A stretch of DNA of 59,371 nt, the filler included, from Jimgerdemannia flammicorona (Eukaryota): assembly GCA_003990765.1 (NCBI GenBank). It is 3 parts of 3 records of this genome, joined end to end, with 100 filler letters (N's around TTAATTAATTAA, not from the genome) between each part and the next. Parts side by side here need not be neighbours in the genome. Positions count along the whole stretch, not along the records: positions 19,838 to 39,554 come from RBNJ01001865.1; positions 39,655 to 59,371 come from RBNJ01001866.1; 1 more part is not named here. One strand, written 5' to 3'. The translations under genes were made by a program, and so were the position numbers. Each line of letters starts with the position of its first letter. Position 1 is the first letter of the stretch. Below the pieces are notes generated by a model. That model ran no database searches. It worked only from the letters and a program-made list of their open reading frames with translations, and had not been told where the DNA came from. Positions 24,365 through 42,683 of this stretch are shown here, piece after piece.

Positions 24365-25201
24365 ATGCCTGCTGCCCGCCAAACCTCAAGGTCAAGAAAT
24401 TACCAAGATATCTTAGTTGAGGAAAGGATGTTCTAAGACATCAGAAGAACTATAAGGACCTGCTCAAGAAGGACTCCTAGTGTCAACCTGGGTACTGCAG
24501 ACTCTTATCACTTTATTCTCTACTGTCATGAAATGGAAACAAGGATCACTATTGCTACTGAATGCCTCCAAATGTGGCAGGAGTATGAAATAGGAAACCT
24601 CCTCTACCAGGAGTTCCCACAAGCCAGCACCCAAGAGCTACAAGATGCCACTCTCATGGATATACACGAAACAAGGACAGCTAAGAAGATCCATCAGATC
24701 TTCAGGCATGCACCATGGTTGATCCCCAACTTGGAGTATGTCAGAGTCTCAGACTTCAGAGACCTATCATCCTGCCATATCAATGCACTAGAAGCCAGGG
24801 TGGCTACAGAAGCCCAGTCCACTATCACTCTCAACAGTGAAGAAGTAGAAGACTTCTGGCACCCTATCCTTCAGGACAACTCAGACCAATTCCTGCAAGG
24901 ATTGATCTCAGTATTCCAAGGCCCAAGCATCCAGGTTAAACCTCCCCAAGACCCCACATTTGTTCCCTACTTTGTGGAAGAGAACCTCATAGACTGGAGA
25001 GCTCCAGATCTTGTTCCCGATTTTCCTGCTACAGCCGAATGTGATGACATCATCGGTGATGACGTCATCCCACATGACATACCCAAAGCACGCGAAGAAC
25101 ACGAAATGTGCGACCTGTATGATGAATTCGTAGATCTCATCTCCTTCAGTGATGATGATGATAAGGATGAAGCTCTCATGGTTCTGAACTTTCTACTCTG
25201 A
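24365..25201 (+). pseudogene. LTR(U3)-encoded accessory ORF, family A, 278 codons, one CAA->TAA stop; function unknown
   Basis: MPAARQTSRSRN... is in frame with the 222-aa ORF 24533-25201. Present in all five complete A LTRs (also 31691-32493, 36116-36937 minus, 46570-47397, 54588-55445). Confidence 0.8.
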
Positions 25202-25210
25202 GTTCTGTGT

Positions 25211-25450
25211 TATACTGGATAATGCCAGCACCAGTATTTTCATATAACACTGGATAATGCCAGCACTGGTATTCTCATGTAACACTGAATAATGCCAGCA
25301 CCAGTATTCTCATGTAACACTGGATAATGCCAGCACTGGTATTCTCATATAATACTAGATAATGCCAGTACTGGTATTCTGAGGTGACACGAAATTGTTC
25401 CAGTACCAGCATTTTGATGTAACACTAAATAATGCCAGCCCTGGAACTCA
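25211..25450. repeat. 7 x 35-bp tandem array with internal dyad, in LTR U3
   Basis: Units start at 25211, 25246, 25281, 25316, 25351, 25386 and 25421. Core AATGCCAG-CA-CTGGTATT. Only 4 units in the 3' LTR (~32503-32640). Confidence 0.92.
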
Positions 25451-25514
25451 GTAGTTTTAGTTATTGGAATTTATATTTAGCTTTATATCTTAGCAACCAT
25501 TGAATTGTATTTTG

Positions 25515-25547
25515 TATAAATACCCCTCTTATTTCCTCTGAAATAAA
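25515..25547 (+). promoter_or_regulatory. LTR A TATA box and polyadenylation signal
   Basis: TATAAATA at 25515-25522 and AATAAA at 25542-25547, conserved in all complete A LTRs. Confidence 0.65.
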
Positions 25548-39554: not shown

Positions 39555-39654
39555 NNNNNNNNNNNNNNNNNNNNNNNNNNNNNNNNNNNNNNNNNNNNTT
39601 AATTAATTAANNNNNNNNNNNNNNNNNNNNNNNNNNNNNNNNNNNNNNNNNNNN
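39555..39654. other. Assembly gap spacer (44 N + TTAATTAATTAA + 44 N)
   Basis: Same artificial linker as 19738-19837. Confidence 0.97.
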
Positions 39655-40842
39655 TTTTTCTTTTTTCTTTAACGGACTCATGTCCCGCGGATTTTTATTG
39701 GAAGGGAACCTAGACTATATAGGCCAAAACCCTCCCCCACAACCCATCAAGCACTGCCCCCCTATTAACCTAGGCTAACTATTGTCCAGCAGCTCAACCA
39801 TACCAGGCACAGTAGGGCCTATGTTGGCCCGCATCTCATTCTGTGCACCATGCTCTCCCTACAACCAGGGGAAACCCAGCTATATGCCAATGACTGAAAG
39901 CACATACCCGAGAACCCAATGTATGTACAAGGCCATGCCCAAGCCGAATAGAATAGCCCCTGCCACTCCAAAGAGAGTGACAGGTAAAGAAAAACCCTCA
40001 TCAAAGCACAGCACGGTGGGTAGAGCCTGGTTCTCCCAGTCGAGGTAAGTAAAGGACTTACACATGAGGCAGGAGGAGACCCCCAATACCCCACTACTCA
40101 AGCCTGCGGGCCTTGATCACATTGCCATATCAGCTCTCAGTTCCAGTTGAGTGTAGCCAAGATGCCTGAAATGGGTAGCCTCGGGCCCCCTGACCCCCCC
40201 TGACAACTGGGACCCAATCCTGCTGACCGCCAAAAGAAGCTGAGAGTGACACCTACCACCTAACCACACCGCACCAATTAAAAGGCCCCACTGAAGCAGC
40301 ACCTGCCCCAGCCCTGATGACTGCCCCCAGCCTGGCACCCTACTGATTCACCATTATCACCCTTCTTCCTATCTGTGATGGCCATCTCCCCTCCCATCCC
40401 AACAACACCCAAAAAACAGTCACCTATGCCAGAACCACACTCATCAGGAAGCTTGCCAAAGCCAGAGGGCCCCACCACAGGCACTGAGGACCTGCAGGTA
40501 ACCTACACTGAGCACTTGATGCCCAAGGTCGGCCGACTCCCTATGTAGCCCAAGACACACTGAGACAACTCCTTGTTGGCAACAGTAAAAGGAAGAAGGC
40601 ACTGCACCAAAACAGGTACACCCCAGATACAGCTAAAAGCACCAGAATCTGCAAAAAAGTGGAGGAAGCACCAATCTGACACCAATAAAGGGGCAACTCA
40701 TCACTATTGCCCTCCTCCCACCATACCCCTGCAGGCACAGCAAACCAACCCAAGGTAGAGGGGGGGTAATAATAGGGGAAAGGGGACTTGGAAGGTTGCC
40801 TACCAAACCTTGTGACCGGTAAGATAGTAGAGAAAGGAGCTG
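39655..40842 (-). mobile_element. ~1.2-kb non-coding poly(A)-tailed element (non-autonomous non-LTR-like), copy 1
   Basis: Inverted homolog of 58185-59371 with the same 5' boundary CAGCTCCTTTCTC. AATAAAA and an A-rich tail on the minus strand. Confidence 0.65.
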
Positions 40843-41707
40843 GTCATTGATATATTCAATCTTTGCCTAGACTAGTAATCTCTATAAGATCAAGAATTAT
40901 ATTCTCAAGAATACTAAGAGTTATACTAAGATCTTATAGACCTGCACTTTCTTTAATTTTAACATTTAGCAGCTCTAGCAATTCAACTGAAACAAACTCA
41001 GAAACTAAAGAGAAATCAGAAAATAGTGATATTGAAATAAAAACAATACTATCTACATTTGCAAGATATCTAGGAGAAGATACAAAAGCATTCTTGAATA
41101 CTATCAAAGAAATTGTAGCTCTGAAAAATCTGATACTATAAAGACAAATTTCTATCTTTAAGATCTAGCTAAGAGAGTTAGTCAAAGAAATTTTTACCAG
41201 AATAGTAAGTAACTAAAGTACTAATCTAGGATATGTCATAAATATTATAGATTTATATACTCAATAATACAAAACCATTATCTACTAGATAATTGAAAAG
41301 TAAGTAGAAATAGAAATTTATTATAAGACTTAAGAATCTATTATAAATATGAAAATAAAACTTAAAGAATCTTTATGAGTATTTTTCACAGAAATCTAAA
41401 AAAAAAATATACTATCTGATTCAATACTACTAATCAAAATATCATTGACCCAATAATCTTTATGAATGAGATCTCTCCTAATATTGATCAATATATCTAT
41501 TGTGACGTAAGCAATTGACAACAGAGTACCGGTGACTGCTAAGATCAGACGACATAATGGCGTGACAATCAAATAGACAGCCTGACCCATTAGGTGATCA
41601 TCCCAAAAGAAGACAAGATGATCCGAGCCAAAATGAAGACCACGTTATTTAAGGAACCATACTCCGCCTCAGGGATCAGCACCAAAGAACCAAGTACCCA
41701 CCACACA

Positions 41708-42683
41708 ATGCCTCCCATTCGCCGATCTAACCAGACCTCCTGCCGCTCTACCCCTTTGTCTGGCCCAAAGACCCTGATCTTCGAAGCTATCAAAAAGGCC
41801 ATCTGGCGCCCAGATACTTCTGAACACTTGAACTTCTACACTGAGGACCTTGGACACTTCATCAACTACCGGTATATAATGACCCAGCAGCTCAAAGACA
41901 CTACCAAATGAATGACCCTCTGGCATGACTACGAAATCAGACACCGCCTTTGCAATGAGACTCAAGAAGACGACCGGGAAGGCCTCATTATCGAATTGAT
42001 AACCACTAGCCGGCTAATCAAGAGAGCCCTCCGTGTCCACCAAATCTTCTGCCATATTCAATGGGCCATAGCACACTTGCAAGGAGTAACAGCTGGAAGC
42101 CTCTCCCGCCTTTCAACTGAAGATGCTGACTGGATAGAATCTGAAGTAGCCAACTCTACTGGCAGCAATCGCGTCGCCATAGGAAGCCAACAAACCGAAC
42201 CTACTCAGCCAGGCTTCCACACCACCCCACTCCGAGACAACCATCAAGGTCACCTAATGAGTCTTATGGAGATATTTGAAGGTCCACCCATTACCATAGA
42301 AGCACCCGTTGGAGCTACCCCAACCACCCACCACCCTGTCAGCCACAATTCACATCTCATCATTTGGGAACTGAATCAAGAAGAAGCCCAAGAAGTCCCT
42401 GTCTTTAAAGAAGAAGCCCAAGAACTCCAAGACCCTGCCCCTGAAGAAACCCCCTCCGATACTGAAACTGACGAGTTTTCAGAAGAAGAAGAGGAGCAAC
42501 AGAGAGTCTACCAGTCCTCTGTCCGCATTCAAGCTGTTCAATGTTGTTGAAGATGACTGGCCACTTTTCTACCCCCTCACCTCTTGGTCGGCGCTTCCCC
42601 CTTTTGAGGAGAGGTATGATGAAGAAGAAATCTTAACCCAGCAAGATTTGCCTGCTGCAGACAAAGGGTACTATTTCCTCTAG
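41708..42683 (+). pseudogene. LTR(U3)-encoded accessory ORF, family B, ~328 codons, homologous to the family A ORF
   Basis: MPPIRR...IFEAIKKAI...GHFINY...LWHDYEIRHRL...VHQIFCHIQWAIAHL. One TGA at 41909, and an 11-nt deletion near 42540 relative to the minus-strand copy, which reads on to ...EWYYSL*. Confidence 0.78.

Follow-up and report, generated by a model that had tools for sequence, protein, structure and literature searches.

LTRs and host elements

The window (the whole stretch of Jimgerdemannia flammicorona DNA analysed here, 59,371 nucleotides including filler) contains LTRs of two retrotransposon families, designated A and B. These were mapped by self-BLAST and their ends were set by motif search:

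24123..25751, + strand: 5' LTR of family A element A1 (1629 bp, TG...CA ends; self-BLAST and motif search; 4-bp target duplication ATAT/ATAC)
25752..31448, + strand: internal region of element A1 (gag from about 25873, CCHC, protease, dUTPase, RT, RNase H and integrase; decayed)
31449..32957, + strand: 3' LTR of element A1 (self-BLAST, ends by motif search)
35641..37194, - strand: family A solo LTR (self-BLAST; 4-bp target duplication ATAT/ATGT)
37873..39554, - strand: family B LTR copy 2 (B2; incomplete, cut by the N run at 39555)
41501..43933, + strand: family B solo LTR (B1; 2433 bp, TGTGAC...ATCACA ends; 4-bp target duplication CTAT/CTAT)
46317..48669, + strand: 5' LTR of element A2 (self-BLAST; 747-bp foreign insert at 47504-48250; 4-bp target duplication of A2 CTAT/CTAT)
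54335..55934, + strand: 3' LTR of element A2 (self-BLAST)

The five family A LTRs in the window range from 1509 to 2353 bp. Pfam analysis of family A identified, in order, zf-CCHC, RVP_2, RVT_1, RT_RNaseH_2, Integrase_H2C2 and rve (the last of these a weak match), as well as a dUTPase located between PR and RT, so that the order of the element is gag-CCHC-PR-dUTPase-RT-RNaseH-IN. This domain order, together with a PPT, a short target duplication and LTRs in direct orientation that have TG...CA ends, classifies family A as Ty3/gypsy (Metaviridae). In A1, pol ends approximately 30 bp 5' of the PPT AGGAGGAAGA.

B1 lies in an AT-rich repeat, a second copy of which (56985-57035) is empty: the sequences flanking B1 are contiguous there at about 57004-57015. 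With TG...CA ends, a flanking target duplication and this empty-site paralogue, B1 is a solo LTR. The initial annotation referred to different retrotransposon families, which holds for the LTRs, while the internal part of family B is absent from the window. Specifically, tblastn with pieces of A1 pol found only a dUTPase remnant at 35093-35362, and when 87 stop-free segments of the repeat-rich flanks were scanned with Pfam, that remnant was again the sole match. No Rfam family was identified at the gathering score across the entire window.

An open reading frame inside the LTRs

Following tblastn with five intact proteins of the family described below, a single type of open reading frame (the LTR ORF) was located at seven sites in the window. 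All seven are inside mapped LTRs, in agreement with the position that had been claimed for it:

24365..25201, + strand: best family A copy (A1 5' LTR), 278 codons, no frameshift and a single internal stop (Q to stop, 24434-24436)
31691-32493, + strand: A1 3' LTR copy, two stops and frameshifts
36937-36116, - strand: family A solo LTR copy, six internal stops
46570-47397, + strand: A2 5' LTR copy, start codon gone, six internal stops
54588-55445, + strand: A2 3' LTR copy, nine internal stops
41708..42683, + strand: family B copy (B1), about 325 codons by homology to the intact protein P0020 (78.6% identity), interrupted by a single stop (R to stop, 41909-41911) and a single frameshift around 42480-42547
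39548-39309, - strand: remnant in B2, acidic tail only

The region singled out by the initial annotation runs from 24365, which is the A1 ATG, to 42683, which is the family B stop after the frameshift. The ORF starts 243 bp (A) or 208 bp (B) into the LTR and ends 5' of a second TATA box. It is not a gag or pol extension, as pol is closed by stop codons ahead of the PPT and the start of gag lies beyond the 5' LTR. The claim that solo LTRs carry the whole ORF was borne out by both the family A solo LTR and B1.

The ORF is thus present as claimed, but none of the six full-length copies (five from family A, and B1 as the only full copy from family B) is intact; the seventh, B2, is a gap-truncated fragment. 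The window copies show RIP-like C-to-T and G-to-A transition damage; the underlying bias (transitions, CpA/TpG) was determined from every difference between paired LTRs and not from the stops themselves. All window copies are pseudogenes, and because their stops are read as RIP-type damage, these stops look secondary.

A new protein family

The LTRs of families A and B look unrelated as DNA, yet they were claimed to hold homologous ORFs, and this proved to be the case (about 278 and about 325 codons, respectively). While blastn at word size 7 returned no match between the A and B LTRs, tblastx matched them in the ORF frame alone, one of six (E-value: 5e-16). The A and B proteins are 27% identical over 152 aa (BLASTP E-value: 1e-13). 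The Smith-Waterman score for the window copies is 147, compared to 34.8 +/- 5.6 for shuffled sequences, and none of 1000 shuffles scored as high (z 20). For the intact proteins P0002 and P0020, the shuffle test gave a z of 30. Subfamilies P0016 and P0018 bridge A and B, aligning along the full length.

Intact relatives of 247-342 aa were identified in metagenome protein sets (P0001, P0002, P0008, P0010, P0018 and P0020, plus the ORFs of L001 and L002). L001 and L002 are two homologous metagenome loci, found in a scan with a five-row alignment, that served as the comparison DNA; L002 is not demonstrably an LTR. A scan of viral contigs for related loci returned none. The family is tiny, comprising five clusters among 1.84 billion representatives, and its few database homologues are labelled "hypothetical protein" or are nameless. 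No fused or longer form was found among 8000 scored candidates of 600-2000 aa, which is weak evidence.

Six members were analyzed with Pfam and none had a match at or above the gathering threshold. A PDB sequence search with the family profile gave no match at E-values up to 10. The highest-ranking ESM Atlas cluster (0.91) corresponds to a hypothetical protein with no name and is possibly the family's own; all other rows are below 0.9. As the initial annotation proposed, the predicted proteins form a conserved but previously unrecognised group. Intact homologues exist elsewhere, and by these sequence searches the group is a new, unnamed protein family that matches no known one.

Putative promoter and poly(A) signals

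Each type of LTR has a TATA or TATA-like box 5' of the ORF and a TATA-AATAAA module 3' of it. Those defined in A1 and B1 are as follows:

24278..24285, + strand: upstream TATA box TATAAAAG, 87 nt 5' of the A1 ORF ATG
25214..25444, + strand: 35-bp tandem repeats (x6.5), located 3' of the ORF stop and 5' of the second TATA box
25513..25547, + strand: module TGTATAAATA-N-AATAAA of the A1 5' LTR (second TATA box and poly(A) hexamer, 27-nt spacing)
43121..43154, + strand: module TGTATAAATA-N-AATAAA of family B LTR B1 (26-nt spacing)

The box TATAAAAG is also present at 31604, at 54504 and in the family A solo LTR, and is degraded to TAGAAAAG at 46486 in the A2 5' LTR. L001 and L002 have the same box 65-80 nt 5' of the ATG. 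Family B instead has TATTTAAG at 41646, which is merely TATA-like. Across both families, the upstream box lies 62-87 nt 5' of the ATG. Both TATAAAAG and the 20 nt 5' of the ATG are conserved among the four aligned A copies, L001 and L002, while the surrounding DNA aligns poorly. Downstream, the TATA-N26/27-AATAAA module was found in seven of the eight sequences examined (all five A copies, B1 and L001); in L002 it was not found, as that locus either ends before the module or lacks it.

An upstream TATA box combined with a downstream TATA-AATAAA module suggests that each LTR may be a self-contained transcription unit. The ORF had been assigned to U3, and it does lie 5' of the conserved module; the U3/R boundary is predicted from that module, with the second TATA box taken as the putative promoter for genomic RNA. 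According to the model that we favour, transcription of the LTR unit would begin at the TATA box 62-87 nt upstream of the ORF, pass through the conserved leader and ATG, and produce an mRNA of about 1.3-1.5 kb with its 3' end at the poly(A) signal of the LTR itself. This signal is located 26-27 nt past the second TATA box, the putative promoter for the genomic RNA, which would place the ORF in U3. Overall, it is moderately probable that the gene is real, LTR-internal and expressed as its own unit from U3.

Two other arrangements were considered. In the first, which we judge unlikely, the upstream TATA box would be the sole promoter, the ORF would lie in an R region of approximately 1.25 kb as the first cistron of the genomic RNA, and TGTATA...AATAAA would represent a fungal poly(A) signal composed of efficiency and positioning elements and not a second promoter. 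TGTATA followed by AATAAA does resemble yeast-type 3'-end signals, and TATAAAAG is a perfect TATA box that is conserved across subfamilies. Such a genomic RNA would, however, contain a functional poly(A) signal within the 5' LTR, 1.3 kb from the cap, as well as a 270-codon ORF and about 650 nt before gag, and both would severely impair expression of gag-pol. The spacing between TATA and AATAAA, fixed at 26-27 nt in all seven module-bearing copies, better fits a hexamer positioned just 5' of the transcription start and transcribed only from the 3' LTR, and the tandem repeats immediately 5' of the second TATA box resemble enhancers of U3.

In the second arrangement, the ORF would have no promoter of its own and would be translated either from a subgenomic RNA produced by splicing or from genomic transcripts where they run into the 3' LTR, like MMTV sag or lentiviral nef. 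The sense orientation of the ORF and its location in a segment of the LTR that a genomic RNA carries at its 3' end are compatible with these retroviral precedents, but the conserved TATA box and leader next to the ATG would be left unexplained and the gene would be silent in solo LTRs. We consider this improbable, more so than a single upstream promoter.

Selection on the protein

When the ORFs were compared by the Nei-Gojobori method, pN/pS values were 0.30/0.71 for A1-L001, 0.41/0.75 for A1-L002, 0.40/0.75 for L001-L002 and 0.55/0.70 for B1-L002; dS was not estimable for A1-B1 and B1-L001. With dS saturated between subfamilies, the ratio of about 0.15 is rough. In window A copies that stem from separate insertions, differences are enriched at third codon positions in seven of eight pairs (p 0.0004-0.008; p 0.15 for the remaining pair), while between the two LTRs of the same element this enrichment is not significant (p 0.055 and 0.16). 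NG86 ratios are 0.29-0.43 even between both LTRs of one element, where neutral decay is expected, compared to 0.62-0.87 for shifted-frame controls; the low ratio is therefore partly an artefact of transition bias.

The initial annotation proposed a selected gene, and pN is well below pS between subfamilies (0.30-0.41 versus 0.71-0.75). The predicted protein was under purifying selection while the elements were active. Very improbable is the explanation that the open frame is non-functional, either a by-product of conserved U3 cis-regulatory DNA or a decaying captured host fragment: it would account for the damage to every full-length window copy and for a very small family without a known domain, but A and B align as proteins and not as DNA, in one frame of six, pN falls well short of pS, independent subfamilies contain several intact ORFs (247-342 aa), no host homologue was found among the 1.84 billion representatives or among longer proteins (weak evidence), and the window stops, read as RIP-type damage, look secondary. 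Very probably, then, the LTR ORF is a genuine protein-coding gene that is under selection and internal to the LTR. We regard it as an accessory gene that belongs to a small family without a name and lies wholly in the LTR of a fungal Ty3/gypsy clade.

Protein features and predicted function

The first 40 residues have a net charge of +5 to +8 in four of the five proteins examined; the exception, P0018 (+1), lacks a basic N-terminus. The C-terminal third (blocks from residue 201 onward) has a net charge of -17 to -29. No transmembrane segment was identified in five members, in which the maximum 19-residue Kyte-Doolittle mean is 0.59-1.07 and the N-terminus is basic and hydrophilic. With this maximum at 1.07 or less, the protein is not env-like, as had been stated. 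A DLIxF-acidic motif has been read by eye only as SIM-like or clathrin-box-like, and neither reading is claimed here.

AF2 gave a pLDDT of 45.7 for the full-length protein and 62.4 for a core model that is mainly helical. The best Foldseek match of this core model to the PDB had an E-value of 0.98, and the best match in a wide VIA-align search had a Z of 4.5, with no fold match; this absence is weak evidence because the pLDDT of the searched model is just 62.4.

With its basic N-terminus, helical core and strongly acidic tail with hydrophobic motifs, the product might be a soluble nuclear factor that acts in trans on expression or silencing of the element, as Tas, Tax or Tat do in complex retroviruses. 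This prediction is based on charge layout only and is a tentative one, held with low confidence. The combined model, in which each LTR would be an autonomous gene (its own TATA box, leader, ORF of 250-340 codons and LTR poly(A) signal) whose nuclear product would activate the element or shield it from genome defence, is slightly more doubtful still.

Retrotransposon LTRs are regarded as non-coding control regions and are masked by annotation pipelines, and a gene carried in an LTR would be systematically missed by gene callers. Such a gene is duplicated at each insertion, outlives the element in solo LTRs and may be expressed independently of gag-pol. If the trans-acting model is true, this would be the first regulatory gene of a "complex retrotransposon" in fungi, and the concept of "complex" retroelements, which carry regulatory genes, would reach beyond vertebrate retroviruses to the retrotransposons of fungi. 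The gene is also a candidate for how such elements cope with fungal genome defences: as solo LTRs keep the whole unit, the solo-LTR pool could remain a source of the factor for active elements.

Comparison with known systems

Retroviral genes located in or overlapping U3 include MMTV sag (the "LTR ORF"), lentiviral nef and foamy-virus bel/bet. Like these, the fungal LTR ORF is a sense-strand accessory gene that is duplicated with the LTR and is not gag, pol or env, and it would also share their placement in the U3 part of the LTR. No similarity of its product to theirs in sequence or fold was found by Pfam, PDB profile, Foldseek or VIA-align analysis, the fold searches having used a weak model. 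MMTV Sag is a type II membrane glycoprotein, while the LTR ORF protein lacks a hydrophobic span. The host element here is a fungal Ty3/gypsy element without env, and the LTR ORF has an apparent TATA box of its own inside the LTR.

Complex retroelements encode regulatory proteins such as foamy-virus Tas, HTLV Tax and HIV Tat/Rev, and Tas is expressed from a promoter distinct from the main one in the LTR. CERV of Cer1 is described as a C. elegans RNA-export protein (PMC10309623). The LTR ORF would likewise encode a small, non-structural, non-enzymatic accessory protein, with a basic stretch and acidic or hydrophobic motifs that appear compatible with a nuclear role. The resemblance to these proteins is in layout alone, as no homology was found.

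Fungal chromovirus-like gypsy elements that bear a dUTPase have been described from Postia placenta (PosPlaTy3), Phanerochaete and Tuber (Tmt1) (PMC2864245). Family A has its dUTPase between PR and RT, as in PosPlaTy3-5; in the parts of that paper available to us, no LTR ORF is mentioned for PosPlaTy3 and the related elements, and a figure legend lists an "add. ORF" with no function given (PMC2864245). Searches of a literature set with few subscription journals, and with neither Repbase notes nor the original papers on Tmt1 and the Phanerochaete dUTPase, turned up no account of LTR retrotransposons that carry a protein gene within the LTR.

The aORFs known from other LTR retrotransposons include the env-like ORFs of plant Athila and Bagy2, the antisense ORFs of Grande, RIRE2 and Retand, and that of Boty (PMC7264820), while Retrosat2, RIRE3 and RIRE8 carry ORF0 (PMC3485330). 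As far as the accessible portions of these two papers indicate, aORFs and the LTR ORF are alike in being lineage-restricted, without an assigned function or homologues outside the elements, present in most copies and more divergent than pol (PMC7264820, PMC3485330). The aORFs described there are internal, between pol and the 3' LTR or 5' of gag (PMC7264820, PMC3485330). The LTR ORF differs from this class in location, as it is found in 5' LTRs and solo LTRs too; it lies wholly within the LTR, and is therefore present in two copies per element and kept by solo LTRs.

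LTR elements in the window

Two full gypsy-type elements, both belonging to family A (A1 and A2), and a solo LTR of the same family were mapped by self-comparison of the window and inspection of the element ends. Family B is represented by a complete solo LTR (B1) and a cut-off copy (B2). When five intact family proteins were used as tblastn queries against the window, the ORF was found at seven sites, each of them within a mapped LTR.

LTR elements and tblastn matches to the ORF
24123-32957, element A1, with LTRs at 24123-25751 and 31449-32957
24365-25198, ORF match in the A1 5' LTR
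31691-32490, ORF match in the A1 3' LTR
35641-37194, minus strand, solo family A LTR
36937-36119, minus strand, ORF match in the solo A LTR
37873-39554, minus strand, family B copy B2, cut by the N run from 39555
39548-39309, ORF match in B2, tail only
41501-43933, complete solo family B copy B1 (2433 bp)
41708-42623, ORF match in B1
46317-55934, element A2, with LTRs at 46317-48669 and 54335-55934
46570-47394, ORF match in the A2 5' LTR
54588-55442, ORF match in the A2 3' LTR

In A1, gag opens just past the 5' LTR; the element also encodes a CCHC knuckle, protease, dUTPase domain, RT, RNase H and integrase, and its pol frame closes with stop codons approximately 30 bp before the polypurine tract. 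Because the ORF starts 243 bp (family A) or 208 bp (family B) into the LTR, it is not a continuation of pol or gag, and its interpretation as an extension of either gene was ruled out.

B1 is clearly a solo LTR: its two flanks are contiguous (near 57004-57015) in the other copy of the AT-rich repeat into which it is inserted, and a CTAT/CTAT duplication borders it. This repeat family is present twice (40274-40842 versus 58185-58751; 40985-41498 and 43946-44935 versus 56497-58055), and as one copy hosts B1, the pair provides an empty-site control. Duplications of 4 bp were also found at A2 (CTAT/CTAT), A1 (ATAT/ATAC) and the solo A LTR (ATAT/ATGT). Both families duplicate 4 bp at (A/C)TAT targets (ATAT, CTAT, ATAT and CTAT at the four mapped insertions), which hints at an integrase target preference common to A and B.

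A third dUTPase-bearing element, heavily degraded, has left a remnant at 34907-35323 (plus strand), in the stretch that separates A1 from the solo A LTR (PF00692, E-value: 1e-6; identity to the dUTPase of A1: 30%). The N runs at 19738-19837 and 39555-39654 each consist of two 44-N runs with 12 bases between them and resemble assembly gaps.

Flanking regions

Just upstream of A1 are two adjacent 1.2-kb direct repeats (21542-22742 and 22929-24122; 79.7% identity), situated in a region of low GC content (31-36%) and strongly positive GC skew (0.29-0.38), in which neither a Pfam match nor a homologue of the LTR ORF was found. Positions 1-17500 form a gene-rich flank with a GC content of 44-55%. 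The following ORFs were recorded there, the first two being named by eye:
1626-3580, putative nucleolin-like acidic/RRM/GAR ORF
5017-6568, putative sterol-methyltransferase-like ORF
9057-13055, minus strand, very long ORF (1332 aa)
13099-17496, minus strand, very long neighbouring ORF (1465 aa)

Homology between the family A and family B proteins

The initial annotation described LTRs that look unrelated as DNA yet encode similar proteins, and both halves of this description hold. No blastn alignment was obtained between the A and B LTRs at a word size of 7, yet tblastx detected similarity in the ORF frame only (E-value: 5e-16). The two longest open pieces align by BLASTP with 27% identity over 152 residues (E-value: 1e-13), and the start of the protein (MPA/MPP...QT) is kept between families. 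In comparison with shuffled controls, the local alignment of the window A and B copies scored 20 standard deviations above the shuffles, while that of the intact relatives P0002 (A-type) and P0020 (B-type) scored 30 standard deviations above them; neither score was reached by any of its 1000 shuffles. The A-B protein similarity is beyond chance and, with all seven matches lying within LTRs, the original observation is confirmed.

An apparently new protein family

Relatives were sought by word index among 5.8 billion proteins, with six matches, and by phmmer across all 1.84 billion cluster representatives, with only five clusters matched; a profile search gave 11 matches, all of which belong to the LTR ORF family. 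Among these are intact proteins from several subfamilies: A-type relatives (P0001 and P0007, both 247 aa, and P0002, 271 aa), longer-tailed relatives (P0008 and P0010, both 323 aa), two bridging types (P0016, 214 aa, and P0018, 342 aa) and the B-type P0020 (325 aa, 78.6% identity to window B1). Their source names are either "hypothetical protein" or absent. A longer, fused form of the protein was not found in the 8000 candidates of 600-2000 aa that were scored, which is weak evidence.

None of six family members matched a Pfam family at threshold, and a PDB sequence profile search with the family returned no matches at E-values up to 10. AlphaFold modelled the full-length protein poorly (pLDDT 45.7). 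A model of the core domain (pLDDT 62.4) consisted mainly of helices, with a short hairpin at the C-terminus; at this model quality, neither Foldseek (best E-value: 0.98) nor an all-against-representatives structural scan (best Z 4.5) gave a fold match. The family was rightly called unrecognised, and the product of the LTR ORF appears to represent a novel family, encoded at an unusual location.

Decay of the window copies and selection on the ORF

In the window, all six full-length copies of the ORF (five in family A, plus B1) are disrupted, and B2 is a fragment truncated by the N run. The best copy, in the A1 5' LTR, has 278 codons and one internal stop, while the remaining A copies are broken by internal stops (2 to 9), frameshifts or a missing start codon. 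B1 has one stop (an arginine in P0020) and one frameshift near 42480-42547. These copies are dead. Within an element, the LTR pair is only about 83-88% identical. Of the differences, 68 of 69 (A1) and 123 of 131 (A2) are transitions, mostly C-to-T in CpA and G-to-A in TpG. We take this pattern to be the RIP signature of filamentous ascomycetes.

Selection was assessed by Nei-Gojobori comparison among A1 and two metagenome contigs carrying intact ORFs (L001 and L002).

Nei-Gojobori comparison of ORF pairs
A1-L001, pN 0.30, pS 0.71
A1-L002, pN 0.41, pS 0.75
L001-L002, pN 0.40, pS 0.75

From these values the ratio comes to roughly 0.15 at saturated dS; no estimate was possible for pairs involving B, which have diverged too far. 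An excess of third-position differences was observed in seven of eight window A pairs from different insertions (p 0.0004-0.008), the exception being the solo LTR and the A2 5' LTR (p 0.15), and no significant excess was found in the same-element LTR pairs (p 0.055 and 0.16). This pattern fits selection before insertion followed by neutral decay. The NG86 ratio of intra-element pairs is still 0.29-0.43, versus 0.62-0.87 in shifted frames, and part of this low value is methodological because the mutation spectrum consists almost only of transitions. Between subfamilies, pN lies well below pS, and the ratio itself is a rough value. The frame-specific tblastx signal and the many intact ORFs provide firmer evidence. 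Together with the pN and pS values, they support the main interpretation of the initial annotation: the LTRs contain an internal, selected protein gene. That the ORF is a non-functional frame is highly improbable on the same evidence.

Signals around the ORF and a proposed mode of expression

In A1, a TATA box (TATAAAAG) lies 87 nt before the ATG. Four A copies retain this box, the fifth having the mutated form TAGAAAAG, and the same box is found 65 nt (L001) and 80 nt (L002) before the ATG; the family B counterpart is TATTTAAG at -62. The 20 nt preceding the ATG (AAAGACTTACCACAAACAAA-ATG) are also conserved among A, L001 and L002. The ORF is followed by a 35-bp repeat (6.5 copies) in family A and by 28/82-bp and 85-bp repeats in family B. 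After the repeats comes a module, TGTATAAATA-(N)-AATAAA, with a constant TATA-to-hexamer distance of 26-27 nt, which is present in all five A copies, B1 and L001 and was not found in the 285 nt after the stop in L002. The A2 5' LTR carries a single-copy insert of 747 bp (47504-48250, GC 53%) between the ORF and the second TATA box, bordered by a 16-bp direct repeat (TCTGGTATCCTTTTCC).

We propose that the second TATA box is the putative promoter of the genomic RNA. The AATAAA would then lie just upstream of the genomic start and would therefore be read in the 3' LTR only, and the ORF would be situated in U3, driven by the upstream TATA box. The predicted ORF mRNA would be approximately 1.3 kb (A) to 1.5 kb (B), ending at the poly(A) site of its own LTR, such that each LTR, solo LTRs included, may be a complete transcription unit. 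A giant-R layout, in which the ORF would be the first cistron of the genomic RNA instead of a U3 gene, is unlikely. Retrovirus-style expression from a spliced 3' RNA is more doubtful still.

In four of the five proteins examined, the first 40 residues have a net charge of +5 to +8, against +1 in P0018; a near-neutral core follows, and the last third (blocks from residue 201) has a net charge of -17 to -29 and contains conserved hydrophobic-acidic motifs (DLIxF, VLNF). No membrane span was found in the five proteins, in line with the lack of a TM segment noted initially. This charge layout would suit a putative regulator acting in the nucleus, for instance a transactivator or an anti-silencing factor; with composition as its basis, we regard this role as a tentative possibility.

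Comparison with known elements

U3 genes are known in retroviruses, namely MMTV sag and, in part, nef and bel. These are unrelated in sequence to the LTR ORF, and MMTV Sag is a membrane protein, in contrast to the product described here. In the available portions of the respective papers, the extra ORFs of plant LTR retrotransposons and Boty sit in the internal region (PMC7264820), ORF0 of rice Retrosat2 sits upstream of gag-pol (PMC3485330), and dUTPase-bearing gypsy elements are known in fungi, with no LTR ORF described (PMC2864245). In the part of the literature covered, no LTR retrotransposon is described as carrying a protein-coding gene within its LTR. Accessory genes are a known theme among retroelements; what appears to be new here is the protein family and its place inside the LTR.
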